Source of the DNA: an uncultured bacterium
Lineage (GTDB): Bacteria > Auribacterota > JAFGBW01
Direction: 5' to 3'
DNA length: 64,000 bases
Assembly: GCA_964443875.1 (NCBI GenBank)
Contig: CAYUET010000012.1
Location: forward strand, 12,778-76,777
Shown here: positions 23,559 to 60,065 of the stretch, one piece after another
How the letters are laid out: the number at the start of each line of letters is the position of its first letter
Position numbering within the stretch: the stretch's first letter is position 1
Notes under the pieces: model-generated
What the model saw: only the letters and a program-made list of their open reading frames with translations
What the model was told of the DNA's origin: nothing
Databases searched by the model: none
Made by a program: the position numbers and the translations under genes

Positions 23559-25988
23559 TTAGGCGGCTTTTCTAAAGTCATTTTCGCTTTTAATAGACAA
23601 AGCGTGAAGGACATTCTTTGTTTCAGAGAATTTTTCCATAAGAAAATTATAAAATTCTTTTTTTCTGGAGTCCCCCGCTGCATTTTGAAGGAGGGAACCT
23701 AAAAGTTCAGATATGTAGGCTGTGTTGGTATTAACCTGGTTCCACATCCAGAATTTTAGTTGAGTATCCTGGATTTGTTTAAGCAGCGGAGGGGGAGTAA
23801 CCTTACCGTCCTTGTCCATGCTCCCATAAAGATTCTGATAGGTGATATCTTTGATTTCTTTAGATTTTTCTTCATTAGTATTAGGATCAGGCTTCTCATA
23901 TCCGAAGTTTGTGGCCCCTCTGATCGTGCCGTCAGGCATTGTCCCCTGAAGGCATATTCGTCCAAGATTTTCGTAACCCTCTGACATGGAGCCGTCGGTT
24001 TGAACAACAAAATTGTTCATATCCCCCTTGAAAACGATCCAGTCCATTTTTTTATCCCTATATTTTTCCAAGTCGTTATGCCCCATAAACAGGCCAGCTC
24101 TTATTTTCCGTTGTTTGAAGGAATCGGTTCCTCCGGTAATCGAGGGAAGCGCTTTATGTCCACCGTAATCGATAAATTTCTGTATGGATTCAGGCTTGGC
24201 TGTTTTCTTGGTATCTGAATACCAGGCGTCAACAATACTCAGGATGTCTCCGATTTCCTGCCACATAATTTCACGCAATTTTTTAGACTCCTGAGGATTT
24301 TGCATCAGACCTATGAATTTTTGTCTGGAATATTGGGAGAAGAATTTCTGGACATTGTTTTGCATGGCCTCCAGAGCTTTAAGGCCTTTACGACCCTTAT
24401 AAGAGACATCGAAATCCTCTATTATGGGATTTTTATTTTCATCGAGAGTTTCCTTAACGGGTAAGATACTATGCCAGTGGAGATTCCCGAAAGGGTCAAT
24501 ATAAAAAAGTCTGAAGTGTCGGCCCACCCAGTAGGCATGTTCCAGCACCTCTTTATCTTTTGAATAGTCCTCCAGATTCAATGGGTAAAAAGTGAGTTCT
24601 GGAAAATGAGTCCCCCTGGATTCATTAAGGGCAATCATTTTTTTATTTCTGTCGGTAATCTGCTCATCAAGAAATTTCAAAGTTCCTTCCATAATGCCGG
24701 GCACGTCTTGTTTTTTACCCTCTCTTCTGCCTTTTGCGATGTCGGAATTGATTTTTTTGAGTCTTTTGACTTCCGGTTCAAGAAATTTCTCTCTGTAGTC
24801 CAAGATATCGATGGGGGCAAGAGCATCCTCTCCTTTAAGTTTGTATTTTTTATTGTAGGAATCAATCAGGGCATTGATTCTTTCCTGATTGAGTTCATCC
24901 ACTTCATTGGATCCCCATGCAGCATGGTAAACGGCTTCATGAGCCCAGTACGCCGGATGATTACTTGCTTCCTCGGCTGGGCCTTTGAATTCTCCTTTTT
25001 CAAACCATCCGGAAAATTGTTCAAGCTCATGAACCCCTAACACCCCCATCATACGCCAGAGATCATGGTTCCCGACAATAAATTTTCCGATGTGAAGTTC
25101 GCTTGTTAAATACTCCACTAGTCTGTGAGATTCTACAGGATATTTCCCGCGATCCGGGATGTCCGACATAGCTACAATCCGGATATATTTTTCCTGGGGT
25201 TTAATGTTGTTTTGTTCCAGGGCTTTTTTCAAATCCTTAACCGTAAAGAGGTTTTTATATTCACGGAGTCCGAGGGTATAGGCAATAAGAGGAATAAGGC
25301 GTCTGGCGCCCCCATGAATATCCGAAATTGCGGCAATGGTGGGGATTTTTCCGTCACCAGGATTCTTCAGTTCATTGAAAAACTGTTTATTAAGCCAGCA
25401 GAGCTCCAGAAGTTCTTTTTCCCCCTTGCCGAAGTTGAAAACAAAAGAGTCGAGAGAAAGGGTGAGGTTGACATGAGAGTTAAAAGCATCAAGGCTGGTG
25501 GCTTCTTCCTTGTTCATAAATTGATATTTGTTCTGAAACAGGAGATCAAACTGATGGTAACCCTCAGGGGTTAATTCTCCTTTTTCGTAAAAATATTGGG
25601 AATGTTCATCAAGTTCACTCCATTTTTGGATTTCTTCGAGCGTATGAAGGGCGAAAGGATCAACGCCCTCAAGGACTTTAAGTGCAAATGTAAAGCGGTC
25701 AGACAAGGGGTATTCCTGAATCTTATGTTTTAGAAAGATCAATCTGGCTTTTGTATGGAGATCTGTCTGAAGGATTTTATCCGTTCGGATTGTTTTTAGC
25801 CTGTTTTCATTATTTTGTTTCCATAAATCAAGTTCTTTGAGAGCCATTTCCAGGTTGGAGGGGTTTAGTGATTTTGGCGCAAGGCAGCATCGCCTCTCTG
25901 AATCGGCGTGCAGAAAATTGACAGGAAAAAACAGCATTCCTGTGAAAAAGAGAAGAAATAAGATGTGGATTTTATAAATTTTTTTCAT
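23559..25988 (-). CDS. large secreted calcineurin-like metallophosphoesterase domain protein
   Basis: Signal peptide. Metallophosphatase motifs SDIHGG, MSDIPDRG, VGNHDLW and GHxH-like. 809 aa with long flanking helical regions. Confidence 0.55.
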   Translation of the reverse strand: MKKIYKIHILFLLFFTGMLFFPVNFLHADSERRCCLAPKSLNPSNLEMALKELDLWKQNNENRLKTIRTDKILQTDLHTKARLIFLKHKIQEYPLSDRFTFALKVLEGVDPFALHTLEEIQKWSELDEHSQYFYEKGELTPEGYHQFDLLFQNKYQFMNKEEATSLDAFNSHVNLTLSLDSFVFNFGKGEKELLELCWLNKQFFNELKNPGDGKIPTIAAISDIHGGARRLIPLIAYTLGLREYKNLFTVKDLKKALEQNNIKPQEKYIRIVAMSDIPDRGKYPVESHRLVEYLTSELHIGKFIVGNHDLWRMMGVLGVHELEQFSGWFEKGEFKGPAEEASNHPAYWAHEAVYHAAWGSNEVDELNQERINALIDSYNKKYKLKGEDALAPIDILDYREKFLEPEVKRLKKINSDIAKGRREGKKQDVPGIMEGTLKFLDEQITDRNKKMIALNESRGTHFPELTFYPLNLEDYSKDKEVLEHAYWVGRHFRLFYIDPFGNLHWHSILPVKETLDENKNPIIEDFDVSYKGRKGLKALEAMQNNVQKFFSQYSRQKFIGLMQNPQESKKLREIMWQEIGDILSIVDAWYSDTKKTAKPESIQKFIDYGGHKALPSITGGTDSFKQRKIRAGLFMGHNDLEKYRDKKMDWIVFKGDMNNFVVQTDGSMSEGYENLGRICLQGTMPDGTIRGATNFGYEKPDPNTNEEKSKEIKDITYQNLYGSMDKDGKVTPPPLLKQIQDTQLKFWMWNQVNTNTAYISELLGSLLQNAAGDSRKKEFYNFLMEKFSETKNVLHALSIKSENDFRKAA

Positions 25989-26145: not shown

Positions 26146-27060
26146 ATGGATAGGAGAGCGGCCTTTATCATTTCCCTCATCATGGCGGTGATCGCCGTCC
26201 TGATGGTTAAAACCTACATCAATAATCAGAAGGTGAAAGCCACAAAAAATCTGGATCTTGTCACCGTGGTTGTGGCGGGTAAAACGATCCAAAAAGGGGC
26301 ATCCTTATCTGAATCCAATCTTAAAACAGGGCAGTTTCCTGAAAAATATGTCGGGGAAAGGGAAGTCCGCGCGGACAATGTTTCCATGATTTTAGGTAAA
26401 AAGGTCATTAATAATCTGGAAGAGGGCAAGCCGGTCTTATGGTCGGATGTGGAGCTTGAGAAAAGTGAAGGCTTTGCCTCTGTGATTAAGGCCGGAATGA
26501 GAGCGGTAACCGTTCCTGTTTCCAGTCTCTCCTCCATCAGCAATATGATACGCCCGGGTTCCCGTGTGGACCTCCTTTTAACTTTCGATAAATCACGTAT
26601 CGAAGCTAAAAAAGAGGATGCCAGAAAGGATTCCGGAGAGGTTGTTCCGGATATGAAGAACATTCAGGCTTTCCGGGAGTATCTGATGCAGAAATACACG
26701 AAGCCCGGAGAGTCCAGTCAGATGACCGTCCTTTTAAAACAGAATGTTCTGGTTTTGGCTGTGGGGCAAAAGTATATGGGAGATGAAATGCCATCGAGAA
26801 AGCAGGACAGTTACTCGGAAGTGACTCTGCTGGCGACGCCCGCTGCCGCCCAGGAACTGGTGCATGCGCTGACCATGGGGCAGATTTCCTTTATTTTGCG
26901 TAATGATACGGATGTGGAAAAAAATGTGGTCACTCCCTCAACGGATGATTCGGTTTTCAGGTCTGCCATTACGGCCTCCATTTCTCAGACAGGGGAAGAG
27001 GTTTCTGAAGCCAAACCGGCTGAGTCTGACGGGCAGAGCGTTCAGCCGGAAGTTCAATAA
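26146..27060 (+). CDS. cpaB: Flp/Tad pilus assembly protein CpaB (RcpC-like, SAF domain)
   Basis: N-terminal TM anchor, then VVVAGKTIQKGASLSESNLK (SAF) and a CpaB C-domain, followed by an acidic Ser/Thr-rich tail. RBS AGGAGG. Confidence 0.75.
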   Translation: MDRRAAFIISLIMAVIAVLMVKTYINNQKVKATKNLDLVTVVVAGKTIQKGASLSESNLKTGQFPEKYVGEREVRADNVSMILGKKVINNLEEGKPVLWSDVELEKSEGFASVIKAGMRAVTVPVSSLSSISNMIRPGSRVDLLLTFDKSRIEAKKEDARKDSGEVVPDMKNIQAFREYLMQKYTKPGESSQMTVLLKQNVLVLAVGQKYMGDEMPSRKQDSYSEVTLLATPAAAQELVHALTMGQISFILRNDTDVEKNVVTPSTDDSVFRSAITASISQTGEEVSEAKPAESDGQSVQPEVQ

Positions 27061-27064
27061 TTTT

Positions 27065-28642
27065 ATGGCATTCCTTCTGTTCAGGGATAATACACGGACG
27101 GATTTGACCAGCCTTCTTCCCGGTCAGGAAAAGGTATTCGGTTCCGCCTATGATTGTGATATCCAGTCTTTTGAGGCAAAGGTCGCAGAACGTCATGTGG
27201 TTTTTTTTAAACAGGGAGAGGATTATTACCTGAAACCCTTTTCCAAAAAAAATTCATTTTTTATTCAGGACAGGGAAGAAAATAATGAAACGCTTCTTAA
27301 ACATAAGGATGTGATCCGCATCGGAGAAGACCGCCTGGAGTTTTATCTCCGTGAGCCTGATCAGGGGACTCCGGAGGAACGAAAAGATCAGCTTAAAATG
27401 AAGCTTCACAAATTTCTTCTGGAGAGAATCAATTTAAAAAAGATCCGCAGCGGAGACGACAGTCTGAAAACTAAGGCCCTGGAGATCATTGAACAGCTTA
27501 TTAATGAATTTGAGACGGAGATCATAAAGCTTTGCCCGAAAGAAGTTTTTAAAAAAGAGATCACAAATGAGGCCTTAGGGCTTGGTATTCTGGAGGAGTT
27601 TCTTTCAGATCCGGAAATAACGGAAATCATGGTTAAAAATGCCAGAACGATTTATCTGGAAAAGAAGGGTAAACTTCAGCCTGCACAGAAGACCTTTTTA
27701 AACAATGAGCAGCTTTTGGGAGTCATTGAGCGGATTGTGTCACCCCTGGGCCGCAGAATAGACGAAAGCTCTCCCATTGTGGACGCCCGTTTGTCTGATG
27801 GGTCCCGTGTGAATGCGGTCATCCCGCCTATCGCTCTCGACGGTCCTGCGCTCACCATCCGTAAATTTTCGAAAACCCCTTTCAAGGTTCCTGATCTGAT
27901 CCGATTCGGAGCCTTAACTGAAGACATGGCGGCTCTCATTGGCCTTGCCGTTAAGTACCGTCAGAACATCGTTATTTCAGGGGGAACAGGATCAGGAAAA
28001 ACCACCCTTCTCAACGTGTCGGCTTCCTTTATTCCTTGCGATGAACGTATTGTAACCATTGAAGATTCAGCGGAGCTTCAGCTTCCCCAGGATCATGTTA
28101 TCCGACTGGAGGCAAGACCAGCCAATATAGAGGGCAGGGGACGCATCAGCATCCGGGATCTGGTGATTAATTCTCTGCGTATGCGTCCTGATCGCGTGGT
28201 GGTAGGCGAATGCCGCGGCGGTGAATCTCTGGACATGCTTCAGGCCATGAATACGGGGCATGACGGTTCCATGACCACGCTTCACGCGAACGCCCCCAAG
28301 GATGCCCTGGCAAGGCTTGAAACCATGGTCCTTATGTCCGGCATGGAGCTTCCTTCACGGGCTATCCGCGAACAGATCGCCATGGCCGTGAATATCATCA
28401 TTCAACAGGCCCGGCTTGCGGACGGTCAGCGCAAGATTACCCATATCACGGAGATTACAGGGATTGATGAAACGGAAATACATTATGAGCATATTGTCCT
28501 TTTCCGTCAGACCGGAATTTCTCCGGATGGAAAAATTTTGGGACAGCATGAGTTTACAGGTTATATTCCCCGGTTTATAAAAGTTCTTCAGGAAAAGGGA
28601 ATAGAGATGCCTATGAATCTTTTTGCTCAGAAACCAGCCTGA
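27065..28642 (+). CDS. cpaF: Tad secretion ATPase CpaF/TadA with N-terminal FHA-like domain
   Basis: Walker A GGTGSGKTT and the T2SS-E family signature. The N-terminal ~100 aa (DYYLKPFSKKNSFFIQDREENNETLLKHKDVIRIGEDRLEF) resemble an FHA fold. The track ORF begins at 26903, but the in-frame ATG at 27065 follows the cpaB stop. Confidence 0.85.
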   Translation: MAFLLFRDNTRTDLTSLLPGQEKVFGSAYDCDIQSFEAKVAERHVVFFKQGEDYYLKPFSKKNSFFIQDREENNETLLKHKDVIRIGEDRLEFYLREPDQGTPEERKDQLKMKLHKFLLERINLKKIRSGDDSLKTKALEIIEQLINEFETEIIKLCPKEVFKKEITNEALGLGILEEFLSDPEITEIMVKNARTIYLEKKGKLQPAQKTFLNNEQLLGVIERIVSPLGRRIDESSPIVDARLSDGSRVNAVIPPIALDGPALTIRKFSKTPFKVPDLIRFGALTEDMAALIGLAVKYRQNIVISGGTGSGKTTLLNVSASFIPCDERIVTIEDSAELQLPQDHVIRLEARPANIEGRGRISIRDLVINSLRMRPDRVVVGECRGGESLDMLQAMNTGHDGSMTTLHANAPKDALARLETMVLMSGMELPSRAIREQIAMAVNIIIQQARLADGQRKITHITEITGIDETEIHYEHIVLFRQTGISPDGKILGQHEFTGYIPRFIKVLQEKGIEMPMNLFAQKPA

Positions 28643-28659
28643 AAGAAAAGGAGGAACGC

Positions 28660-29553
28660 ATGACTGAAACAGTCGTTTTACTTTTGCTTTTTCTTTCCCT
28701 CGCTTATTCCTTCTTTTTTTTATTTTCCAGAGTTGTCCTTGAAAATCCTCTCCGCCGGTTTCCAAAATCTTCCGGCGGCAAGCTCAGCGAAGAGGATCTT
28801 CAGAAAAGACTCCGGGAATATGAAGAAAATTTTATTTTTGTCACGCCGCAGAAGCTGAAATCCCGTCAGCAGAGTTATTCCATTCTTTTCGGGATGATCG
28901 GGCTTCCCGGTTTTTTCGGCGGAGCGGGGTCTGGTATTTTTTTATGTCTGATTCTGGCTCTTGCCGGATATTTTGTTCCGCTTTTAATGATCCGATCCGA
29001 GGTGGAAAAAAGGAGGAAAGCTTTTGCCTCACAGATTCTGGACATGCTGGAAACGGTTTCAAACGGTCTTAAGGCGGGGCTTTCCTTTTCACAGGCTCTG
29101 GAAGCCGCTGCAGAACAGACTCCAGATCCAATGGGGGAAGAACTTCATTATCTGCTTCGCCAGAACAGTCTGGGGGTGAATCTGGATGACGCGCTTGCCA
29201 AAATGGCGGACCGGATGAAAAATGATAATTTCAGCCTTGTGGTTTCTGCTGTAACGGTTACCCGTCAGCTTGGAGGTAACCTCCCTGAAATTTTTAAATC
29301 GATCGGAGAAACCCTCCGGGAGCGTGAAATGATGGAAGGAAAGATTATTGCTCTGACTTCCCAGGGCCGGATGCAGGCCGCTTTGATGGGCGCCATGCCT
29401 TTTCTGCTCATGATCGGAATTTATTTTCTGGATAAGAAAACCATCCTGCCTCTTTTTATAACCCCCATGGGGTGGGGGCTTCTGACGGGGATGGTTTTTT
29501 TGAATGCGGTGGGATTTATTGTGATCAAGAAAATTGTAGACATTGACATATAG
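28660..29553 (+). CDS. tadB: Tad inner-membrane platform protein TadB (T2SS-F domain)
   Basis: T2SSF-like helical domain with flanking TM segments. 297 aa. RBS AAGGAGGA. Confidence 0.75.
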   Translation: MTETVVLLLLFLSLAYSFFFLFSRVVLENPLRRFPKSSGGKLSEEDLQKRLREYEENFIFVTPQKLKSRQQSYSILFGMIGLPGFFGGAGSGIFLCLILALAGYFVPLLMIRSEVEKRRKAFASQILDMLETVSNGLKAGLSFSQALEAAAEQTPDPMGEELHYLLRQNSLGVNLDDALAKMADRMKNDNFSLVVSAVTVTRQLGGNLPEIFKSIGETLREREMMEGKIIALTSQGRMQAALMGAMPFLLMIGIYFLDKKTILPLFITPMGWGLLTGMVFLNAVGFIVIKKIVDIDI

Positions 29554-29562
29554 GGAGAGCCT

Positions 29563-30480
29563 TTGATGGGAGTTGTTTATCTTATTTATCTCATCGTCTT
29601 TTTTGCGGCGGGTATTGCCGGATATGCGTTTCTGATCTCATTTAAGGGCAGGAGACCGATGCCCTCCATTCACGGAGCCCCGCGGAATCCGCGGCATGAG
29701 TCCGTAAAATTTTTTTCAGACCGGGCTCAAAAAACATTCCCCTTCCTTTATAAAAATAAAAGGGTGGCGCCTATTTTCCGGAAACTTGAAAATCTTCTGG
29801 ATAAGGCCGGCCTTTCCAGTGAATATTCTCCTGAGGAATTTTTCACCTTTTCTCTTCTGGGATCCGCTTCCGGATTTATTCTTTCTGTGCTGAGCACCCT
29901 GGCCTTGTTTTATTCAGAAACTGTAGACGAGTTTGGTTTTTTACATGCGTTTATTATTATTGTTCTTTTTACCGGTTTCGGATATTTCGGCCCTTTCATC
30001 AAATTAAACGAGCTCATCAGCGCCCGAAGGAAGTCAATTTTAAGGGCTTTGCCGTTTACTCTCGACCTCATTACGGTTTCCGTGGAAGCAGGACTTGATT
30101 TTGGAAACGCGGTTCAGAGGATTATCGACCGGGGAGAGATGAATGAACTTCATTATGAATTTTATCTTTTTTTAAATGAAACCAAGCTCGGGAAACGGAA
30201 AATAGATGCCCTGGAGCGGATGGCGAAACGGATTGATATTCCCAGGGTGACTTCGATTTTAGGAAGCCTTATGCAGGCTGAAGAACTCGGTATGAGGATC
30301 GGACAGATTCTTAGAATCCAGTCCCAAAGCCTGAGGACACGGCGAATGCAGACAGCTGAAAAATCTGCTTTGGAGGCCCCGGTGAAAATGCTGATCCCTC
30401 TTGCCATTTTCATATTTCCCGCAGTATTTATTGTGCTTTTAGGGCCCATGATCATTCAATTCATGACCCGGGGAGGATAA
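29563..30480 (+). CDS. tadC: Tad inner-membrane platform protein TadC (T2SS-F domain)
   Basis: Second T2SSF-like protein directly after tadB. 305 aa. TM helices at both ends. Confidence 0.7.
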   Translation: MMGVVYLIYLIVFFAAGIAGYAFLISFKGRRPMPSIHGAPRNPRHESVKFFSDRAQKTFPFLYKNKRVAPIFRKLENLLDKAGLSSEYSPEEFFTFSLLGSASGFILSVLSTLALFYSETVDEFGFLHAFIIIVLFTGFGYFGPFIKLNELISARRKSILRALPFTLDLITVSVEAGLDFGNAVQRIIDRGEMNELHYEFYLFLNETKLGKRKIDALERMAKRIDIPRVTSILGSLMQAEELGMRIGQILRIQSQSLRTRRMQTAEKSALEAPVKMLIPLAIFIFPAVFIVLLGPMIIQFMTRGG

Positions 30481-30482
30481 AA

Positions 30483-30842
30483 ATGATTAAGGCAGCACTC
30501 ACAAACCGAAGTAAAAATGTCGTTGTATTGCCAAAGCTTCTGGTTACGGATACACTTATGGAAAAATGCAAAGGGCTTATTCCCTTTAAAGGGCTCTCTC
30601 CGGATGAGGGGCTTTTGATTCCCGGATGCAGAAGTATTCATACCTTTTTGATGCGGTTTTCCATTGATTGTTATTTTTTAGATGAGGAGAACAAAGTGCT
30701 TAAAATTGTAAGGAATGTGGAACCCTGCAGAATGTCTTTTGGCGCCTGGGGAACAGAACATGTGCTGGAGGTTTCTTCTGAAAGCGGTAAAACTCTGAAT
30801 ATAGATCTCAACGATCTGCTTGAAATCAAGGAGACGGAATGA
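30483..30842 (+). CDS. DUF192 (COG1430) domain protein
   Basis: 119 aa. The GLSPDEGLLIPGCRSIHTFLMRFSIDCYFLD...VLKIV pattern matches the DUF192 family. Confidence 0.55.
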   Translation: MIKAALTNRSKNVVVLPKLLVTDTLMEKCKGLIPFKGLSPDEGLLIPGCRSIHTFLMRFSIDCYFLDEENKVLKIVRNVEPCRMSFGAWGTEHVLEVSSESGKTLNIDLNDLLEIKETE

Positions 30843-31807
30843 AAACAGACATCAAATTTTTCCTGTTTCTGATTCAGTTGGTTATTCTCGGAGGGTGTCT
30901 GCCCTCGCTTAATCCGGATCCATGGAAACAATACGAGGAATCCCGGCATGGAATCCGGTTTGAACTTCCCGATTTGATGATCCGTACCACCAAAAAAAAC
31001 CTGTGGGGATTTAAGGAATGGAAAGATCCCCAGCTTCCCTTGACCTTTACTTTTAAGGCCGGATGGAATCAGGATCTGCGCTTTTTTCCGCTGGAAATGT
31101 GTCTGGACATGTATTTTTCCTCTTATAGGGCCAAATATCCCCGAAGTGCACTTTACGTGGATTCTATTATTCCTTTTATTCTCAGTTCAGGGATTCAGGC
31201 CATAGGGTTTAATGCCATTGACGGGGATACTCTTTTTCAGGGAATTTATACCGTCGAAAACAACCGCTATTATATGATTTTTCTCAAATATCCCAAAGAA
31301 ATGGCTGAGAAAAAAGAGGTGAAAGAGCTTTGGAGCCGTCTTAAAAAGACACTGAGTATTATCCGTCTGCCGGATCACCGAAAATATCTTAAACATCTTT
31401 TAAATGAAAAACAGGGGGAGAAAAAAGCCAATATCAAAGATATTCTTGACTATGGACAGCAGCTTATGTCGCTAAAGGAGGCCTACTCAAAGAATTATCC
31501 TCAGGCCATCATGGAATTCAGAAAGGCTTTGGGAATCATGGAAAACATGACGCCTAAACCTTCAGAGTTTCACAGGGCACTGCGTCTCATTTTTATAGCC
31601 CGAGAGCTGCAGAGAAAAGCCTATGAAAAACATTATACTCTGCTGACCGCCGCCGTTAAACTTTCTAAATGGGAAGAAGCCAGAAAGGAAGCGCTGATTC
31701 TGCTGGAACTTTTAAGTGATGACCGTGAAAATCCTCAGGCCAAGGCGGCCAGAGACAATTACCGGTTTGTCATGAAGTCTTTATCCAAGGCTCAAAAACA
31801 GGAATAA
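30839..31807 (+). CDS. hypothetical lipoprotein (lipobox LGGC)
   Basis: Signal peptide ending VILGGCLPS. Otherwise unrecognised, with a helical TPR-like C-terminus. Translationally coupled to both flanks. Confidence 0.45.
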   Translation: MKTDIKFFLFLIQLVILGGCLPSLNPDPWKQYEESRHGIRFELPDLMIRTTKKNLWGFKEWKDPQLPLTFTFKAGWNQDLRFFPLEMCLDMYFSSYRAKYPRSALYVDSIIPFILSSGIQAIGFNAIDGDTLFQGIYTVENNRYYMIFLKYPKEMAEKKEVKELWSRLKKTLSIIRLPDHRKYLKHLLNEKQGEKKANIKDILDYGQQLMSLKEAYSKNYPQAIMEFRKALGIMENMTPKPSEFHRALRLIFIARELQRKAYEKHYTLLTAAVKLSKWEEARKEALILLELLSDDRENPQAKAARDNYRFVMKSLSKAQKQE

Positions 31808-31812
31808 GAATC

Positions 31813-33567
31813 ATGTATGTAATTATTGTCAAAAATCAGTCCGGTTCTGAAGTTGTGAGATATGCAACAGGTTCATTAAGGGAAGCGGTTTCACTGGGAA
31901 AAAGTCCGGAGAATCCCATTGTCGTGAATGATCCTTCCATTTCTGAAAAACATTGCGCCTTTGAATTTGATGGAAAAAAAATTTCCATCCGGAATTTAAA
32001 AAGCCGCAATGGGATCATTTTAAACGGGGAAAGAATAAAAACGGAAAAAGCGGAGGTTACAGAAACAGATGAAGTCCGCATTGGAGATTTTTTGATTTCC
32101 TTTCTGTGGGAAGGAAGCTCGGAGGATCTTCTCCCGTCAAAGAAGAAAAGCCGGGAGACACTGTTCACCTGGATTCTCTCTTTTCTTCTTTTGACTTTTT
32201 TAGGATGGAACATCCGTCCTCTGCCTGAAAAGGAAATTTTTATTCCCCCTCTTGCCCCTCTTGAAGCGAAAAAATCCGATTCTGAAACTCCCGGAAAGAG
32301 CACCTGGCAAATCCTTCTTTCCAAAGCCAAGGATGCCTATTTTAACGATTCAATCCTTGAGGCGGCAAAGCTTTTTAAACAGGTGCTTGAGCAGCAGCCG
32401 CAGAATATGGGGGCGATGAATTTTCTTGAACAGATCCGGAAGGAAATGATTCCCAAATTGGAAGAAACCATTAAAACCACTATTGCAGAACGGAATATTG
32501 TGACTTGTGCAGCAACAGTGGAGGAACTGAAAATTCTTGATCCCGGCAATATCTGGATTGAAAAAGCCCAGGGGCTTCTGGAGGGATATAAGAAATTTGA
32601 TGAGGTCCGGAAGCTTTATGAATCGCATCATTTCAGAGAGGCTCAGAAAAAGATTCAAAATATAGTGCTGGTGGATGAAGAAACGCTGGAGGAATGGGTC
32701 GGCAAAGTCAATCATGAGGTTAAGGTCACAGAAAATTTTCGAGGAATCCTTACCCGTTACCGTTCAGGTCCTATTTCACAATCTTATAAAGAGCTTAAGC
32801 CATTCCTGGAAACTGAAACCGAACAGAAAGATCTTCTTTCACTGGCACGCCAGAAACTCCAGCTTGTGAAACGTTTCGCCGGGTTTAAAGAGCTGCAGAA
32901 ACAGGATCCCCTTAAACAGACTTCTTTCGGGGTTGCGCTGCTCTATGATCTTTCTGAAAAAGAAGATCCCTTCATTTATCATCAGGTCAATCAAAGACTT
33001 GAAGAGCTGACAAAACAATGCGGTCCTGGAACAGAATTCTATATTCTTCTCAATGAAGATACCGCCACTCAGCTGGATCAGGCCAGGGATTATAAAAAAA
33101 TTCATGAATACAAACAGTCTCTCAGCAATTACCGGAGTGCCCTGAATGGACTCAGAATTCTTTCTTTTTTTTCAAAAGATTCGAAATTCATAAAACAGGA
33201 AGGGGAGGTTTATCAGGAAATTCTCAGTTATCAGGCTTCCCTTAAGAAAAGAGTTGAAGAGCTTCACCAGATCAATGAATCTGACTTTGCCCGACAGTTA
33301 TCAGATCTTCTTGCCCGTTTTAGGGTTTATCCCAATAAAACGGTACTGGCAGCGACAGAGGAATTATATCAGGGAGAGGGGGATGACAAGGCGCTGATCC
33401 GGGAGATTTTCAGTACTGATGCCGGGACTTCTTTTCAGGCTGCTCCGGTGAACAAAGCAGAAAAAAAGACAGCCGAGGCTAATAACTCCACGAACGTTAA
33501 CAGAGCCACCCCCGACCTTTCTGTTTCTGCCGGAAATTTTTTCATTTCCCGGCCGGAAGAGACATGA
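31813..33567 (+). CDS. membrane-anchored FHA-domain protein with TPR-like periplasmic region
   Basis: N-terminal FHA domain (SLGKSPENPIVVNDPSISEKHCAFEFDGKKISIRNLKSRNGIILNGERI). A single TM helix (WILSFLLLTFLGW) and a long helical C-terminal region follow. Confidence 0.7.
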   Translation: MYVIIVKNQSGSEVVRYATGSLREAVSLGKSPENPIVVNDPSISEKHCAFEFDGKKISIRNLKSRNGIILNGERIKTEKAEVTETDEVRIGDFLISFLWEGSSEDLLPSKKKSRETLFTWILSFLLLTFLGWNIRPLPEKEIFIPPLAPLEAKKSDSETPGKSTWQILLSKAKDAYFNDSILEAAKLFKQVLEQQPQNMGAMNFLEQIRKEMIPKLEETIKTTIAERNIVTCAATVEELKILDPGNIWIEKAQGLLEGYKKFDEVRKLYESHHFREAQKKIQNIVLVDEETLEEWVGKVNHEVKVTENFRGILTRYRSGPISQSYKELKPFLETETEQKDLLSLARQKLQLVKRFAGFKELQKQDPLKQTSFGVALLYDLSEKEDPFIYHQVNQRLEELTKQCGPGTEFYILLNEDTATQLDQARDYKKIHEYKQSLSNYRSALNGLRILSFFSKDSKFIKQEGEVYQEILSYQASLKKRVEELHQINESDFARQLSDLLARFRVYPNKTVLAATEELYQGEGDDKALIREIFSTDAGTSFQAAPVNKAEKKTAEANNSTNVNRATPDLSVSAGNFFISRPEET

Positions 33568-35921
33568 GCTATCTGATTTCTGTTTTTTATTTTTTTATGC
33601 TGAGTTTGATTTCTTTTCAGGTTTTTGCGCTGGATACCCTTTTAGGGGATGAAGAGGAAGGCTTTTATCTCAACTGGCCTGAAAAGGAATGGGCCTTTGA
33701 AGCGGAAGAAAGAAAAGAAACCCGACAGACCATTTCACTCCTGAAAATTCAGCAGGAACCTTTTCCGGAAAGAGCCATTTTAACTGCAGAGCCTCGGCCT
33801 GAAGAGGGTTTTTCTGCTTTTTTTGATTTTTATCTGGAAAACGAAAAGAAACAAATTCCAGGAGCTGAAATTGAAATTCTGCCTCAAAGCATCAAAGGGG
33901 AATATGATAACCGGCTTTTTGTTCTTTATGACAGAAAACAGGAAGGCCATTCTTCTGCCTCGGTTATTCTTCTGATTCAGGGACAGCGTTTTTTATATGG
34001 TGTAAGAAGGAAAACGAATTCTTACTCCTCAGGCTTTATTAAAGATTCTGCCGCTTTTCTATTAAAAGGATGTATTCTTGATTCCAAACAGTTATTGCAA
34101 ATCAGAAAACAAAGAGCAGAGGTTGAAGAGGAAAAGATAAAAGAGATAAAAAGCGCGGAGAAGAAGGCCTTTGAATCGGATACAGAAGAGCTGCTTTCTC
34201 TTGTCCGGGATGAGGGAATTGAGGAAAAAGAAGAGCCGGTGGAGTTAACTGTTTATAAATTTAAAAAACAGAAAAAAGAAAAAAACGGGAAAAGTCTTTT
34301 AGAACAAAAAGCGGAAGACTTCTTCCCTCAGAAAGCGCTGAATGAAGAACGGACCCCTGTTGGGGAAACAGCCATCACTTCAGAAACAGAAAAATTATCC
34401 ATTATTTGGGAAGCTGCAGAAGACTGGACAATTTTTTCTGCTCCGGTTCAGAAAATGGAAAAAATGGGAGAAGGTGAGTCCGTAACAACAAAAAGCATCA
34501 AGGTTTATCATTCCCGGGAGAATGAGGATGACTGGACGGAAACCGGAGAAATGAAAATGTCAGGAGGTCCTTTGAAGGAGGGGGAATCTGCAGATAAATT
34601 TCTTGAAGAGTATATTCATAAGATTTTTCAGGATGAATTGAAAAATGACCTGCAGGCCTCTCTTGAGATCACGGAAGATCGGCTTGCGGAATCCGATGCT
34701 TCACGGATTTTTATCATTAGGGCGACAAAGGAAAAAGTGCCGAATATTCAGTTTTACCTGATTCTTTTCGGGAATAAGGGTTTTTATGAAATCAACAGGA
34801 AAAAACGTGGGGAAGAGGTTTTCTTCGTTTCCAGGAAAAAGTTCATTCATTTTTTAAAAAAAGCAAAACTCACTGATTCAGGATTGACGGGGAGGGATGC
34901 TCAAAAATCCGAGAATGAGGATATGGATGAAAACACAGAGGATTCGGAAAAATCAGACCAGGATGACACGGACTCCGGAGATGGGAAAGAGGGGAAGGAG
35001 GATTGGGATTCCAGCACAGACACGGATACTCTTACAGATATCATTACCGATACAGATACAGAGACCGGAACAGGAATAGAGACAGGGACAAAGACAGATA
35101 CCGATACAATAACAGATACGGAAACACTTACGGATACGGACACCCGGACAGGAACGGGAACCGGAAGCGGGACAGGAACGAAGAGGGATACGGATACAAA
35201 GACAGACACGGATACCCTTACGGATATCATAACCGATACAAATACAGAGACCGGAACAGGAATAGAGACAAGGACAAAGACAGATACGGAAACACTTACG
35301 GATACGGACACCCGGACAGGAACGGGAACCGGAAGCGGGACAGGAACGAAGAGGGATACGGATACAAAGACAGACACGGATACCCTTACGGATATCATAA
35401 CCGATACAAATACAGAGACCGGAACAGGAACGGGCACTTCTATTCATACTCAGACCAGAACAAATACAAAAACCGGAACGAGTACTTCAACATCGACAAA
35501 AATCATAACCAAAACCTCTACGGCTACAGAGACTGCAACGAATACTGGAACTAAAACTTCCACCAACACGCATACCCGTGTGGATACATCGACCAAGACC
35601 TCAACAGGCACGAGTACGGATATTACTGAAGAGGAATCAAATGCCATGGAGCAGCAGGAGCAGCAGGAGGAGGCTGATAAAACCAACAAAATGTTTGACG
35701 ATCAGAGGAGAACTCTGATTAAAAAGCATCTGGATAATATTTTGGAAACAAAAGAAGCTTATGAAGCTAAAAGCGGAAATAATGCAGCCTCTTCCCATCG
35801 GAATTATCGTATAAATGCAGAGGAACAGGATTGGGGACAGGCAAGGATCACAATCAATGATATTGAAAAACGCCGGAAGGAATTTAACGACTTAATGAAT
35901 AAGTCAGAGGAAGAGGAGTGA
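33564..35921 (+). CDS. secreted protein with ~200-aa Thr-Asp/Thr-Gly dipeptide tandem-repeat tract
   Basis: Signal peptide. N-terminal ~440-aa domain, then (TD/TG/TE/TK)n tract with 56-60-aa higher-order repeats, then a short acidic/coiled C-terminus. Coupled to the upstream FHA gene (ATGA overlap). Confidence 0.55.
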   Translation: MSYLISVFYFFMLSLISFQVFALDTLLGDEEEGFYLNWPEKEWAFEAEERKETRQTISLLKIQQEPFPERAILTAEPRPEEGFSAFFDFYLENEKKQIPGAEIEILPQSIKGEYDNRLFVLYDRKQEGHSSASVILLIQGQRFLYGVRRKTNSYSSGFIKDSAAFLLKGCILDSKQLLQIRKQRAEVEEEKIKEIKSAEKKAFESDTEELLSLVRDEGIEEKEEPVELTVYKFKKQKKEKNGKSLLEQKAEDFFPQKALNEERTPVGETAITSETEKLSIIWEAAEDWTIFSAPVQKMEKMGEGESVTTKSIKVYHSRENEDDWTETGEMKMSGGPLKEGESADKFLEEYIHKIFQDELKNDLQASLEITEDRLAESDASRIFIIRATKEKVPNIQFYLILFGNKGFYEINRKKRGEEVFFVSRKKFIHFLKKAKLTDSGLTGRDAQKSENEDMDENTEDSEKSDQDDTDSGDGKEGKEDWDSSTDTDTLTDIITDTDTETGTGIETGTKTDTDTITDTETLTDTDTRTGTGTGSGTGTKRDTDTKTDTDTLTDIITDTNTETGTGIETRTKTDTETLTDTDTRTGTGTGSGTGTKRDTDTKTDTDTLTDIITDTNTETGTGTGTSIHTQTRTNTKTGTSTSTSTKIITKTSTATETATNTGTKTSTNTHTRVDTSTKTSTGTSTDITEEESNAMEQQEQQEEADKTNKMFDDQRRTLIKKHLDNILETKEAYEAKSGNNAASSHRNYRINAEEQDWGQARITINDIEKRRKEFNDLMNKSEEEE
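35020..35420. repeat. near-perfect tandem duplication (~168-180 nt unit, ~2.3 copies) inside the TD-repeat gene
   Basis: The unit cttacggatatcataaccgatacaaatacagagaccggaacaggaatagagaca...gacacggatacc recurs at ~35027, ~35217 and ~35385 with only a few substitutions. Confidence 0.8.
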
Positions 35922-36280
35922 TTATAATGCAGGGAATTTTATTTTTGGTCTATGGAGCCATAGTGGGAATTTTTTCTTCCTTTATGGGGGTTGGGGGAGG
36001 TATTCTGATCATTCCTCTTCTGCTGATGCTTGGGTACACTCCTCAGAAAGTGGTTGGAACCTCCTTTATGGTGATTCTTTTAATATCTCTTTCAGCCCTT
36101 TTGGCTCACAATAAATTGGGGCATATTGACTATAAAATAGGAGCTCTCCTCGGGATCGGAGGCATCCTGGGAGCCCAGTTTGGAGCAGTGCTGGTTAAAG
36201 ATATTTCTCCGGAGGTTTTTAAAAAGATTTTTGCAGTATTTCTTGTCGTGATGGGGATCTACCTGTTTGTGAAAAAATAG
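35918..36280 (+). CDS. half-size TauE/SafE (DUF81) family membrane protein
   Basis: 120 aa with 4 TM helices. MGVGGGILIIPLLL and GILGAQFGAVL motifs are typical of one half of TauE/SafE sulfite-exporter-family proteins. Coupled to the upstream gene. Confidence 0.5.
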   Translation: MIIMQGILFLVYGAIVGIFSSFMGVGGGILIIPLLLMLGYTPQKVVGTSFMVILLISLSALLAHNKLGHIDYKIGALLGIGGILGAQFGAVLVKDISPEVFKKIFAVFLVVMGIYLFVKK

Positions 36281-36327: not shown

Positions 36328-37110
36328 TCAGAGCGCAAATTTTTTACGGGATTTCTGCTGAAGTAATTCCATGAATGGTTCGAGACTTTTTAAAGCAAAA
36401 TCCTTTTTATAAATGAGATTTAAAAAATTCTGGAACGCCGAAACTTCAGAACGGCTGAAGAAATGGCCTAATCCCTTTTCAAGACAATACTCATCATTCC
36501 AGTTTTCAAGAATTCGCCTGTGATCCGGCAAAAGGACAAAGGGACTTTCAACCGCTGTTTTTTTAAAGCATTTTGGACATGCAAAAGACCATTCCTGGGG
36601 GCTGGCGTAGGCAGGGCTGTCGCTGCCGATAGGAACTCCGCAATATTCACACAGAAATTCCTGAGAGGCCAGTCCTGCTTTCAGAAGGAGCTGGAACTGG
36701 AAATAAAGCAGGGAGTTATACTGAGCCTGTCCTGAACTCAGAGCCTCGAATATTTTTTTTAACATAAGGAATATACCCGGGGCATGATCGGAATAATCGG
36801 TTTCCATTTTCAGCAGGAGTTCCAGAATAAAGGAAACATGGATCAGGGCTTCATAGCCTTCCAGAGGATAGATTTTATTTACACAGACTTCCTGTATCCG
36901 GTAGGTTTGCTCATGTTTTATCAAAAGCAGTTCGAGTTCATGACCCAGGTCGAACTGTGCCGGATAGAGGGATTTTGGCTGATAGAAACCTTTTTGGTAA
37001 AAACAGATTTTCCCGGCATCTCTGGAAAAAAGATCAAGCCGTGCAGACTGTTTTCCCATGTTTTTTTTCTGAAGACAGAAGGCGAATGTTTTAAGGTAGT
37101 CGTTCTGCAT
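36328..37110 (-). CDS. recO: DNA repair protein RecO-like
   Basis: 260 aa. N-terminal OB-like region, a central helical region and a C-terminal C4 zinc finger (CEYCG...CPKC), as in RecO. Immediately downstream of priA. Confidence 0.45.
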   Translation of the reverse strand: MQNDYLKTFAFCLQKKNMGKQSARLDLFSRDAGKICFYQKGFYQPKSLYPAQFDLGHELELLLIKHEQTYRIQEVCVNKIYPLEGYEALIHVSFILELLLKMETDYSDHAPGIFLMLKKIFEALSSGQAQYNSLLYFQFQLLLKAGLASQEFLCEYCGVPIGSDSPAYASPQEWSFACPKCFKKTAVESPFVLLPDHRRILENWNDEYCLEKGLGHFFSRSEVSAFQNFLNLIYKKDFALKSLEPFMELLQQKSRKKFAL

Positions 37111-46204: not shown

Positions 46205-47986
46205 TTAACCTGAAATTGCGATCTGGAAGGCAGTCAACTGGATCTGTTTTTCACCGCTGAGATTTCTGTTTTTTTCAAAGAAAACAACGGCCTCTGCAAG
46301 AGCTGTTTTATATTTTTCCTGGAATTTTTCAGGATTCGAATCATAAAGAATTTTTGCCGTATGAACATTCATTTCCACGCGCTGGCCTTCCCTGAGAGGA
46401 TCTGAAGACTGGTATTCCGGATCGTTCATGGAAGGGCCAAAAATTTTCCAGAAACTATTTTGGCCATAAAGGGGGAATTTTTTCTGTCCTATTTCTAAGG
46501 CCGTGTCATTATCAGCAAGATTCAGACGAAGGTTTTCAGGGGCGTATTTGTTGTAACTGCGGATGTATTGAACCAGCCCTTTTTCTCTGCTGAATATTTT
46601 TTTATCAAAATTATTGGCGATAAAATCTTTATGAATTTTTTCAAAATCTCTGAGCATGGCTCTGTAGCGGTATGCTTTTTCAGAGGAGAGTGTAACAGTT
46701 GTCCCGTCAGGCGCAGTAAGGGAAAGATGCTCTGGTTGCAGGGTAATATGATCAGCTTCCAGAGTAGTTCCAAAATCCCCGAAGTCGTTTACCCATTTGA
46801 CTGAAACCGGGGTCCCCGCTTCCTGGGAGAGGGTAAAGTTTTCCAGATGCATGTCTCTTCTGCCGATCAGATCAAGGCCTCCGTTCATTCTTCCTACCAG
46901 ATCAAAGGTTTTATTGAAGATATCCTCTTTAATATCAACATCCGATTGATAGTAACCTCTGGCCTGCTCTTTTATTGAGCTGTAGATATCATTTCGTATA
47001 AAATAAACCAGACGGTCTGAGGATTTCGAATAGCGGGTGACAATGACGTTTACATCATCCTTGACCGTCTCCCCGTATAATTTTCCATCAAAGGAAAGCT
47101 TGTCCATGAGCACCACTTCCGTTACGGTATTATCCGGATACTGATTCTGATATTGCTGAGCATAGTCAAAATCTTCAGTATCAATAGTTCTTTTCGATTC
47201 AATTTCCCCGGGCATCTTGATCTCAATCGCTGAGCGGTAATCGATTTTTTTTGTCTGGGCATCCATTTTAAACAGAATGTGTCTTCTGAAGGACCCGCTT
47301 AAAGGGGTTGTAAAAATTCCATTTCCCAGAGAGAGATAAATCTGATGATCAACTGCATATTGAATCCTGTCGTTCAGCTGTCCCTTGTTGGTCTGGTCTT
47401 TACTGAATAATTCAGTATCAGAAGGGGTGGCTTTATAATCCAGTTTTAACCTTGACTGGGTCAAAAGTTCCATTAATTTGGATAAGTTTTTATTGTTTTG
47501 AATAAGGGAAACCATTTCGGGATAGTCTTTGGTAAAAAGGCTCAATTGCTTTTCATCACTTTTTAAAGGTGTTTCATTTTTTTCTGATTCCCAGAATCCC
47601 TTCCATAAGTTTTGAACGTCCTTGCGTAATCCGTTTACATAGGTTTTTCCTGAAAGCTGTGCTAAAGCTCTTTCTAATTCTGTAAGCTCCTCAATCCCCT
47701 GAAAAGTATCGCCTCTGGTAAAAAGGCTTTTAATTTTCTGAAAGCGGTTGGAAAGAGAATATAAGGAGATGGGGGAAAGGTGAGTTGTTGATATTTCACC
47801 GTGAGAGGGTGGCGTGTTCAAAGCCAGTGTCTTCTCTGCTGATTGGGTGTAAGTCATTAGAAGTATGCAGGATAAAACACTGCAAAAAATCAAAGAAACT
47901 CTGTTTTTTTTCTGAGAAGGCATTCTGTTTACCTTTAATAGTTTAACTAATGGTAGATTAATACCATTTTCCCAGGGGGAAATCAA
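46205..47986 (-). CDS. hypothetical secreted protein (~570 aa)
   Basis: Signal-like segment after an internal Met (MPSQKKNRVSLIFCSVLSCILLMTYTQSA). The probable start is 47923. No recognisable domain. Confidence 0.4.
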   Translation of the reverse strand: MISPWENGINLPLVKLLKVNRMPSQKKNRVSLIFCSVLSCILLMTYTQSAEKTLALNTPPSHGEISTTHLSPISLYSLSNRFQKIKSLFTRGDTFQGIEELTELERALAQLSGKTYVNGLRKDVQNLWKGFWESEKNETPLKSDEKQLSLFTKDYPEMVSLIQNNKNLSKLMELLTQSRLKLDYKATPSDTELFSKDQTNKGQLNDRIQYAVDHQIYLSLGNGIFTTPLSGSFRRHILFKMDAQTKKIDYRSAIEIKMPGEIESKRTIDTEDFDYAQQYQNQYPDNTVTEVVLMDKLSFDGKLYGETVKDDVNVIVTRYSKSSDRLVYFIRNDIYSSIKEQARGYYQSDVDIKEDIFNKTFDLVGRMNGGLDLIGRRDMHLENFTLSQEAGTPVSVKWVNDFGDFGTTLEADHITLQPEHLSLTAPDGTTVTLSSEKAYRYRAMLRDFEKIHKDFIANNFDKKIFSREKGLVQYIRSYNKYAPENLRLNLADNDTALEIGQKKFPLYGQNSFWKIFGPSMNDPEYQSSDPLREGQRVEMNVHTAKILYDSNPEKFQEKYKTALAEAVVFFEKNRNLSGEKQIQLTAFQIAISG

Positions 47987-48246
47987 GGTGCCCCGGGCTT
48001 TTTTATTAACAGTAAAACAGGGATTTTTAATACCTCCTGATTGTTTTTAAAAAATGTATTTTATTTGTATTAAAATTGTTATGGCTAAATGGAACTTTAA
48101 ATCGGATTTATACGTCTAATTTATGAAAAATGAAAGAATTGGGGGGATGGAAGATTGAAATTTTCTAATGAGGTTTTGATTCTTCTTTAACTCCCTTTAT
48201 TATAATTTACTTTGAAATATGGGAGACTGACAAAGGAGTTTTTATT

Positions 48247-48729
48247 ATGAAGAAAAAAATAAATATTATGGCAATAACAGTCTTTCTGGCAGCGGGCTTT
48301 TCAACTTCTTCCTATGCAGGAGACAGAGACTGGGCCAGAGCAGGTAAAGTTTTAACAGGAATCGCAGGGGTTGCCCTTTTAGCCGATGCTATCGTTTCTC
48401 CTGTGGATTTTTATCCGGGTCATCAGGGATATCGTCATTATAAAAGACATTATAGACCGCATTATTATCCTCCACCTGTTGTGGTGATAAGGGAAGAATA
48501 CCGGCCTTTTGGTTCCCGCTGGGTTGAGGGGCATTATGTCCAATATGAGGAAAGAATCTGGATCCCCGGGGAAACCCGTAAAATTTGGATTGAGCCGATT
48601 TACACCTGGGAAAGACATCGCGGCAGAACTATAAGGGTTTACCATGAAGGATATTATCGTTATGAAAAAATGCCCGGGCGCTATGATATCTGCCTGAAGG
48701 AACGTTGGGTTGAGGGACACTGGGAGTAA
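48247..48729 (+). CDS. hypothetical secreted protein, His/Tyr/Arg/Trp-rich with internal RWVEGHY/RWVEGHW repeat
   Basis: Signal peptide MKKKINIMAITVFLAAGFSTSSYA. Composition is dominated by aromatic and basic residues. Confidence 0.4.
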   Translation: MKKKINIMAITVFLAAGFSTSSYAGDRDWARAGKVLTGIAGVALLADAIVSPVDFYPGHQGYRHYKRHYRPHYYPPPVVVIREEYRPFGSRWVEGHYVQYEERIWIPGETRKIWIEPIYTWERHRGRTIRVYHEGYYRYEKMPGRYDICLKERWVEGHWE

Positions 48730-48886
48730 AGAAGCCTTGTTTTATAGTTTATCTGAAGGGACTATTTGTATCCCAGAAGCTTCCAGCGAAACAGGATTCG
48801 CTGCATGCTTGAAACAAAGTTGATCTGAGTCTGAGCTTGCCGGGCATACTTAAACCGAACATTTGAAATGAAGTGTGAAATTCGGG

Positions 48887-50488: not shown

Positions 50489-50514
50489 TCATCCCTGAAG
50501 AATAAAGAGGGCTT

Positions 50515-51492
50515 TTACAGAATGGCAGATAATTTAACTCCTGAAGTCTTGAGAATTCTTGCCAGGGCTGTGAGTTGACCATAGGCTAAAACTTTTTGAA
50601 TCCGTGAATCTTTGGAATAATAGTCAGCATTTTTTGCAATATGTGCGGAGTTTTCCTCAAAGGCTTTTGAGAAATTTCCTGAGGCGATCCGGTTATAATC
50701 GGGTAAATACTCTGTTTTATTCTGGGATTCCAGAAGGGGTATCATGGTGATGTCCATGTTGGCATTTTTGGGCGTGACCATATTATTTATGACCTGAAAC
50801 TCAAACTGACTGAAATTAAAATAAACCGCATAAATTCCTGCAGTCTGATCATCTCTTTTGGGAACAAAACCATCAGGAAAGGCACTGTAACGGATCCATG
50901 CCTGACAGGCAAAAGCGATACAGCCCAGAAAATGGTCGGAAAGTTTCAGGAAAACGCTAACCAGGCTTCCTTCCGGAAGGCCGCCGTAAATGAGATCTTT
51001 TTCCCCAAGAGAAACCCCCATAAGATCCTCTTTGTCCACGGCATTAAAAATTTCTTTCATTTCAGCAGGGGTCAGAGAATTTTCCCAGATTAAAGTTTTA
51101 TTAAGAAGAAAGGCGTTTTTTTCAGGGATGTACTGAATGTGATTAATGGCCGGAATCCCCAGTGCAGGGCCTTCAAGAGTAATCCCGCCGGGAATGCTTT
51201 TGTATTTATCCACAATCTGTTTTATGTTTTCAACAGTAGGGCGTACATATTGGGCTTTCAAATAAGGGCCGGCATAGGTTTTGACAGAAACAGATTCCTG
51301 CTGTACAGAGGGTTTTTGAATTTCAACAGGAATTTTAAAGGTTTCCATTACAGCGGGGGCTTTTTTTAGGAAGAGATAATCGGTTGTGTAGGATCTTGAA
51401 TCATCAGCCATTGGCATCTGCATGACAGCACCAAAAGTCTGAAAAGGGATTAATGCACTGACAAATAGCGCCATCAATTTGGATTTTCTCAT
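50515..51492 (-). CDS. hypothetical secreted protein
   Basis: Signal peptide MRKSKLMALFVSALIPFQTFGAV. No recognisable motif. 325 aa. Confidence 0.4.
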   Translation of the reverse strand: MRKSKLMALFVSALIPFQTFGAVMQMPMADDSRSYTTDYLFLKKAPAVMETFKIPVEIQKPSVQQESVSVKTYAGPYLKAQYVRPTVENIKQIVDKYKSIPGGITLEGPALGIPAINHIQYIPEKNAFLLNKTLIWENSLTPAEMKEIFNAVDKEDLMGVSLGEKDLIYGGLPEGSLVSVFLKLSDHFLGCIAFACQAWIRYSAFPDGFVPKRDDQTAGIYAVYFNFSQFEFQVINNMVTPKNANMDITMIPLLESQNKTEYLPDYNRIASGNFSKAFEENSAHIAKNADYYSKDSRIQKVLAYGQLTALARILKTSGVKLSAIL

Positions 51493-51571
51493 GGGGTAAC
51501 TCCTTTTTGGGTGGATTCAAAGCCTAATATACTATATAAAATTAATAAAATAAACGTTTATTTTAATATCC

Positions 51572-60026: not shown

Positions 60027-60065
60027 TTAATGGCTTTAGGCTAACGTTTTAAAAGGATTTAAGTT

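Follow-up and report, generated by a model that had tools for sequence, protein, structure and literature searches.

Does a Tad-type operon that encodes a motor and a membrane platform, but no pilin, still belong to a pilus? This question is raised by nine co-oriented open reading frames (ORFs) that are packed tightly at positions 26146-36280 (+) of a 64-kb stretch of DNA from an uncultured bacterium, hereafter called the window. An earlier note on this stretch had taken the lack of a pilin gene, among other features, to suggest that the operon does not serve a classical pilus. We consider it likely that the operon is the motor and platform half of a Flp/Tad (type IVc) pilus system with a Kil-like design. 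According to comparisons with related loci, the pilin module of the same clade appears to lie at a second locus. Genes for two TonB-dependent receptors, for an LptD/CT351-like barrel and for ExbB are present in the window, and the source organism is therefore taken to be a diderm.

Core genes of the Tad machine

From cpaB to the gene of a half-size TauE/SafE protein, successive ORFs are separated by 4, 17, 9, 2, -4, 5, -4 and -4 nucleotides (nt). This agrees with the tight coupling described in the earlier note, although we count nine genes where the note had ten. Profile searches with Pfam and NCBIfam confirmed the gene content that had been read from the translations, i.e., CpaB, CpaF, TadB, TadC, a DUF192 protein and the half-size TauE protein.

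The first gene (26146-27060, +) is preceded by an AGGAGG ribosome-binding site and encodes a CpaB/RcpC protein with an N-terminal membrane anchor (residues 1-27, hydrophobic by hydropathy), a SAF domain and an RcpC domain. It matched TIGR03177 at 5.6e-42 (143.8 bits, with a cut-off of 71) and PF16976 at 3.6e-23. Only 4 nt separate cpaB from cpaF, with no TadZ gene between them. The second gene (27065-28642, +) encodes the motor ATPase CpaF/TadA with an FHA domain at its N-terminus (PF00498, 5.1e-10; residues 24-87, nt 27134-27325). Its ATPase domain matched T2SSE at 1.7e-60, and the Walker A motif (GGTGSGKTT), Walker B motif (DRVVVGE) and His box are all intact in the translation. Against TIGR03819 the protein scored 1.4e-94 (317 bits), which is under the cut-off of 373 of this model, set for a different subfamily. 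The next two genes encode the inner-membrane platform proteins of the TadB type (28660-29553, +) and the TadC type (29563-30480, +), which matched T2SSF (PF00482) at 7.5e-19 and 4.5e-11, respectively, both above the cut-off. The start codon of tadC is probably the ATG at 29566, following the gene call on the related contig L081.

Parts of the Tad machine missing from the window

We searched the 64-kb window for the missing parts by comparing Pfam or NCBIfam profiles with the remaining 34 ORFs that do not overlap and have 150 or more amino acids (aa), by a prepilin motif scan, and by tblastn. The 34 ORFs contained no secretin, no A24 prepilin peptidase and no ParA-like TadZ. The motif scan for Flp and type IV prepilins returned two spurious matches and nothing else. 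When Flp, the A24 peptidase, TadE, the TadG-like protein and the associated proteins of related loci were used as tblastn queries against the window, the best match had E = 0.007, and no TadE, TadF or TadG minor pilin was found in this way. Hence, the earlier observation that pilin, prepilin peptidase, secretin and TadZ are absent from the window holds.

The note had explained this absence by a Tad-derived apparatus that works without a pilin in secretion or surface display, with a threonine-rich protein of the operon as its cargo, its fibre, or a phosphorylated scaffold read by FHA domains. That neither pilin, peptidase nor secretin was found in 64 kb speaks for this explanation. Moreover, the operon never lacks the gene for the Thr-rich protein, and the authors of the work on the Kil system leave open that Tad-like machines carry out secretion of the type II kind (PMC8460266). 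The related loci point in another direction.

Contiguous and probably split loci in relatives

A word-indexed search of 5.8 billion proteins with the 584-aa FHA-membrane protein of the operon yielded only eight relatives. Relatives are named here by contig (L081, L083, L085/L086, L088, L090, L091, L093 and L095). On L083, L085/L086, L090 and L093, which carry this protein or a CpaB orthologue, the gene order of the operon is kept; identities to the proteins of the window are 78% and 69% for the FHA-membrane protein, and 89% and 64% for CpaB. The housekeeping genes flanking the operon are kept in L083 and L090 as well.

Contig L088 represents a sister lineage, with identities to the window of 68% for CpaF, 59% for CpaB, 64% for TadB, 50% for the FHA-membrane protein and 41% for the lipoprotein. 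On this contig the motor operon directly follows a co-oriented pilin module, which consists of a Flp-like prepilin (67 aa, ..DDSG|QALVEYVILSL..), a Peptidase_A24, a TadE, a TadG-like protein (PF13400), a TadE-like protein and a secreted protein of 285 aa ahead of cpaB. The motor genes then run in the order CpaB, FHA-CpaF, TadB, TadC, lipoprotein, FHA-membrane protein and exported spacer protein (the Thr-rich protein in the window). The layout on L095 is contiguous too; this contig starts downstream of the A24 peptidase gene, so that the peptidase is visible only on L088.

With the TadG-like protein of L088 as query we recovered homologues of about 50% identity, one of them on contig L091. Sequencing run SRR22388113 is the source of both L091 and L090, and L090 carries a near-identical copy of the operon of the window. 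L091 encodes a module of Flp (..EDSG|QAMTEY..), A24 peptidase, TadE, TadG-like protein, TadE-like protein and secreted protein; the genes of Bax1-I and CheX lie upstream of it. The TadE/TadG-type genes of L088, L091 and L095 match PF07811 and PF13400. A second contig with the same pilin module terminates in a convergent gene; therefore, cpaB does not follow. Between the proteins of L091 and L088 the identity is 49-62%, which agrees with the divergence of the motor genes, and the tetranucleotide profile of L091 correlates best with those of L090 (0.935) and the window (0.92). On these two grounds we link L091 to the clade of the window. In this clade, an ancestral single Tad locus thus appears to have been divided, with the pilin genes in one module and the motor genes in another; for the genome of the window itself we infer this from its relatives.

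A secreted protein of 266-285 aa without a known family always closes the pilin module (L088 9055-9912, L095 3496-4329, L091 6239-6556) and directly precedes cpaB in the contiguous loci. It bears a faint mark of AF_1845.

These layouts argue against a machine without a pilin. The L088 and L095 operons are contiguous with pilin and pseudopilin genes, and the sample that yielded a near-identical operon also contains a separate pilin module. The step from a missing pilin gene to a missing pilus is therefore not sustained. A canonical flp-cpaA-cpaC-cpaE set that adjoins the operon and is co-transcribed with it, which the note had named as evidence against its own proposal, is not present in the window; for flp and cpaA, such an arrangement does exist in the L088 relative.

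FHA modules and the Kil system

Both FHA modules that had been recognised in the operon matched the Pfam model, at 5.1e-10 in CpaF and at 3.1e-15 in the 584-aa protein (31813-33567, +). The latter is a bitopic protein with FHA at residues 26-91 (nt 31888-32085), a transmembrane helix at about 116-134 (nt 32158-32214) and an all-helical TPR-like domain at 164-534 (nt 32302-33414). In its structure model an FHA domain (1-100) and one transmembrane helix (116-133) precede the all-helical domain, which has a predicted local distance difference test (pLDDT) value above 90. All protein topologies in this study were derived from hydropathy alone. Since basic residues precede the transmembrane helix, the FHA domain is placed in the cytoplasm and the helical domain in the periplasm. 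The FHA motifs GK (with an invariant Lys for Arg), S44-x-x-H47 and N66-G67 are all conserved.

Among 1.84 billion representatives, a profile of the helical domain matched no more than 27 proteins; roughly twelve of these share the layout of FHA, transmembrane helix and helical domain, and the distant ones score as TPR. In a PDB fold search with the model of the whole protein the FHA domain dominated, and the remainder gave generic helical-repeat matches only.

FHA domains fused to CpaF were already known, as the earlier note had stated. KilF of Myxococcus xanthus is a CpaF homologue with an N-terminal FHA domain (PMC8460266), and the architecture FHA-IDR-3HB-NTD-CAD has been published as CpaF class III, described mostly from Betaproteobacteria (PMC12019362). 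Here as in class III, the FHA domain precedes the CpaF core; the difference is that the phosphate-contacting residues are substituted in our protein. Aligned to GarA, its Arg is replaced by Ser and its Ser by Ala, while the Asn is kept. Among the matches listed, the best 80 CpaF loci from reference genomes included 18 with an FHA N-terminus and nine with a ParA/TadZ fusion, so that a CpaF with FHA is no rarity. The best match listed was 58% identical.

The Kil system comprises several FHA proteins and lipoproteins encoded in two separate clusters (PMC8460266). It resembles our system in its FHA-fused ATPase, in the layout of a further protein with FHA and TPR (TPR-like in ours), in its lipoproteins, in the division of genes over two loci (a probable one in ours), and in the reduction or absence of TadD, TadG and RcpB-type parts. 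In seven loci, FHA-CpaF adjoins a protein of the type FHA-(FHA)-transmembrane-X, 530-810 aa in length; these loci come from three phyla, namely Myxococcota, Lentisphaeria/Victivallales and an uncultured lineage. An hhalign comparison of the 584-aa family with the KilD-type family gave a probability of 99% and E = 1.2e-18, with a co-linear alignment that runs through the transmembrane helix into the first TPR; this score is driven by FHA.

There are also clear differences. The Kil loci hold a short secretin without N0 domain (KilC) and a prepilin peptidase beside the ATPase, neither of which occurs in our locus. KilD has two FHA domains, whereas the 584-aa protein has one, and the TPR-like domains are not significantly similar when compared alone (E = 0.12). 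The lipoprotein, spacer protein, DUF192 protein and half-size TauE protein are without described Kil counterparts. Furthermore, Kil is required for contact-dependent killing of prey, a role that would be unlikely here. The claim that the gene set had not been described thus stands for the particular accessory proteins; it does not stand for the general design, since FHA-CpaF, a partner with FHA and TPR, lipoproteins and split loci have already been published as Kil.

KilD is annotated with FHA and TPR and described as cytoplasmic (PMC8460266). KilD orthologues lie directly downstream of FHA-CpaF in Citreicoccus (L012, 11283-13505) and Archangium (L006, 2115-4370), with the order FHA, FHA, transmembrane segment and C-terminal domain. 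In both, a strongly hydrophobic segment at about residues 287-320 connects the second FHA to the C-terminal domain. This segment suggests that the KilD orthologues are bitopic membrane proteins.

Could the operon then be a machine for contact-dependent killing by a predator, functionally equivalent to the kil clusters of Myxococcus? FHA-CpaF, the KilD-like protein, the lipoprotein and the probably split locus would all fit, and the KilF orthologues of Archangium and Citreicoccus are among the best listed CpaF matches, with 57-58% identity. However, that ranking of relatives is based on the best CpaF matches among at least 599 listed, and groups with no known predation, such as Gammaproteobacteria, Betaproteobacteria, Lentisphaeria and Omnitrophota, have FHA-CpaF as well. 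A KilC-type secretin is missing from the locus, and the window holds nothing that points to a predatory lifestyle. We therefore regard a killing function as unlikely, and retain the motor half of a pilus system that shares the Kil design.

Accessory proteins of the envelope

Three genes downstream of the platform genes encode a lipoprotein, the 584-aa protein described above and an exported spacer protein. This particular trio is rare, conserved and undescribed. The lipoprotein (30839-31807, +; 322 aa) has a lipobox LGGC with Cys20; its N-terminal half is mixed, whereas the C-terminal half is helical and conserved. It has no family or structure match in Pfam, NCBIfam or a PDB sequence search, and a single-sequence AlphaFold2 model was unusable (pLDDT 46). 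Its orthologues are 75-80% identical in the clade, and the operon position is constant up to L088.

The spacer protein (33564-35921, +; 785 aa) starts with a Sec-type signal peptide (residues 1-22, a hydrophobic N-terminus ending ..VFA|LD), followed by a conserved N-terminal region up to about residue 480, a Thr-x tract and a conserved C-terminal helical module (691-785). The Thr-x tract (residues 485-690, nt 35016-35633) spans about 205 aa with 43% Thr, one at every second position. Inside the gene, a unit of 168 bp is present in 1.9 copies that are 100% identical (35112-35430); this DNA has recently been duplicated. Orthologues of 765 and 851 aa share 45-56% identity in the N-terminal region and 62-70% in the C-terminal module of about 95 aa, and the length of the repeat varies. 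The protein belongs to no Pfam or NCBIfam family, and its N-terminal 480 aa had no PDB sequence match. Relaxing the Pfam threshold to E <= 1 produced only noise for both the lipoprotein and the spacer protein. A domain common to these two proteins was considered and was not supported (hhalign E = 0.3).

In the L088 orthologue, Thr-x gives way to a tract rich in Gly, Asp and Asn and then to Pro-x repeats, and the flanking domains are kept. This substitution implies that the tract is a variable, compositionally free, extended spacer. In this respect it resembles the Pro-rich TonB spacer or the Ser-Asp repeats of the staphylococcal Sdr proteins.

The Thr-rich protein had been proposed as a phosphorylated partner of the FHA domains. 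This proposal is not supported, on two counts. Thr-x is not conserved, and contact between an FHA domain and phosphothreonine is topologically implausible, because the signal peptide places the repeats outside the cytoplasm, away from both FHA domains, which are cytoplasmic. Together with the contiguous loci of L088 and L095, these findings make an apparatus without a pilin very improbable, and leave a pilus system with an unlinked pilin module as our preferred interpretation.

ORFs of 178, 164 and 183 aa in other frames and on the minus strand overlap the Thr-x region (34901-35554). They arise from the repetitive ACN-GAN/GGN DNA and do not represent genes. The short-read assemblies L081 and L084 break inside the spacer-protein gene, so that repeat numbers in public assemblies are unreliable.

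Two further genes may be less closely tied to the machine. One encodes a DUF192 protein of 119 aa without a hydrophobic N-terminus (30483-30842, +; PF02643, 1.7e-13). The other, the last gene of the operon, encodes a half-size TauE/SafE membrane protein of 120 aa with about four transmembrane helices (35918-36280, +; PF01925, 1.4e-26). The latter covers positions 2-111 of the 237 in the profile, and its GTG start overlaps the preceding stop codon. It departs from the full-length format of TauE/SafE (about 240-260 aa in two homologous halves); the window contains no second half, and recO follows the stop codon. Orthologues of 118 aa occupy the same position in L083 and L085, and L088 has none.

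The half-size TauE protein, and possibly DUF192, may be unrelated to the machine and merely share its transcript. Both are missing from L088, which keeps all other genes, and the TauE family consists of anion exporters with no known link to pili. On the other hand, the half-size TauE gene overlaps the preceding stop codon and keeps this position at 81-84% identity in L083 and L085, and a DUF192 gene lies at most 300 nt downstream of tadC in 18 of the 62 unrelated Tad loci with a TadC match. We consider the chances of mere co-transcription to be about even. For DUF192, its recurrence after tadC argues for a real association with Tad. It looks like a widespread and essentially undescribed Tad accessory gene, judging from gene neighbourhoods, and its association with Tad has been noted once, in Bulleidia (PMC12786226). 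The 18 loci, from many phyla, are L004, L005, L007, L009, L013, L016, L019, L022, L023, L029, L034, L041, L048, L052, L063, L066, L070 and L076.

Genomic setting

The operon is bounded upstream by a divergent metallophosphoesterase gene (23559-25988, -) and downstream by the convergent recO of a recO-priA pair (recO at 36328-37110, -). A scan gave 22 promoter-like sites, against 14.0 +/- 3.6 in shuffled sequence, and 16 terminator-like sites, against 12.6 +/- 3.5; both numbers are close to expectation. The terminator scan revealed no clear terminator inside the operon. A mobile element or genomic island was rejected, given that there are no tRNA genes and no break in guanine-cytosine content, and that the housekeeping flanks are syntenic in L083 and L090.

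The divergent gene encodes a protein of 809 aa with a hydrophobic N-terminus and a weak calcineurin-like phosphoesterase match. Its synteny with the operon is kept in L081 and L090 and lost in L093, and the data do not support a link between this protein and the FHA modules.

Elsewhere in the window, two adjacent SPFH/Band 7 proteins of 520 and 603 aa, both unusually long, are encoded with a 4-nt overlap (5028-8398, +). After the two TonB-dependent receptors, which are divergent, come a TPR protein whose PilW-like match is weak and sub-threshold, and a ComEA-like protein (55403-61855); no other competence or pilus genes were seen near this region. Four large ORFs (593, 533, 325 and 512 aa) without a Pfam match lie at 46205-53110, one of them with a weak arabinofuranosyltransferase-like match.

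Discussion

The operon shares with the canonical Tad systems (the tad genes of Aggregatibacter and the cpa genes of Caulobacter) CpaB/RcpC, CpaF/TadA and TadB/TadC in their usual order, and its relatives also share Flp, the A24 peptidase and TadE/TadG-type minor pilins. It differs in that TadZ/CpaE between cpaB and cpaF, the secretin RcpA/CpaC and the pilotin TadD are missing, the pilin module is apparently unlinked, and two FHA modules have been added. The Tad system of Bdellovibrio bacteriovorus (bioRxiv 10.64898/2026.07.08.737194) also has dispersed tad genes and an ATPase that bears a regulatory or positioning module at its N-terminus. There, however, the fused module is TadZ (ParA/MinD-like) instead of FHA, and the secretin RcpA is present and essential. 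The order of FHA, transmembrane helix and periplasmic domain is also that of YscD/PscD/CdsD of type III secretion systems. In contrast to these proteins, the periplasmic part of the 584-aa protein is all-helical and TPR-like, without ring-building motifs, and its context is Tad.

We propose that the hexameric ATPase CpaF, the TadB/TadC platform and the periplasmic alignment protein CpaB would polymerise Flp-type pilins. At the platform, the FHA modules would probably stand in for the missing positioning ATPase TadZ/CpaE by recruiting or gating the motor, which may happen in response to Ser/Thr phosphorylation of a partner in the cytoplasm. Around the pilus, the lipoprotein would probably combine with the periplasmic TPR domain and the spacer protein into an envelope scaffold specific to this lineage. 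In such a scaffold, the low-complexity tract would act as an extended linker, not as a phospho-acceptor. The half-size TauE protein is restricted to the clade and may be a mere passenger.

Several observations weigh against this interpretation. The pilin, peptidase and pseudopilin genes were not found in the window, and their presence in this genome is deduced from relatives. The connection between L090 and L091 consists of a shared sample, matching divergence and composition, without a scaffold that joins them. The Flp-like proteins score under the Pfam Flp model, with Class_IIIsignal as their best match (E = 0.14). Neither a secretin nor TadZ was found in the window or in any related contig, whether split or contiguous, and for TadZ this includes the lack of any ParA/CbiA match. 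With a secretin seen on no related contig, the passage of the pilus through the outer membrane is left unexplained. As to phospho-dependent gating, the canonical phosphate-binding Arg and Ser of the CpaF FHA domain are substituted, and the window encodes no kinase and no PP2C phosphatase. The resemblance to KilD does not extend significantly to the helical domain. Finally, the roles suggested for the lipoprotein, spacer protein, DUF192 and TauE derive from inference only.

A bolder possibility is a Tad machine that works with neither secretin nor TadZ, in which the conserved, lineage-specific accessory trio would replace both as a new envelope-spanning scaffold or conduit. The trio would then combine an outer-membrane lipoprotein, the inner-membrane protein of FHA, transmembrane helix and TPR, and the exported protein with its long, variable spacer. 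The motor would be positioned from the cytoplasm via FHA, and the pilus guided or anchored across the periplasm and outer membrane. We consider this unlikely.

Our results leave the known picture of Tad systems in place. A motor half of a pilus system would extend the Kil-like design, with its FHA-fused motor, membrane-bound FHA-TPR partner and dispersed loci, beyond the predatory Myxococcota and Bdellovibrionota to a diderm lineage without cultured members. The split and contiguous loci form a natural pair that shows which genes travel with the motor. Three conserved envelope proteins without annotation stand out, and DUF192 emerges as a Tad accessory that recurs but lacks a characterised function. 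If the secretin is truly absent from these genomes, one would have to ask by what route a Tad filament passes the outer membrane.

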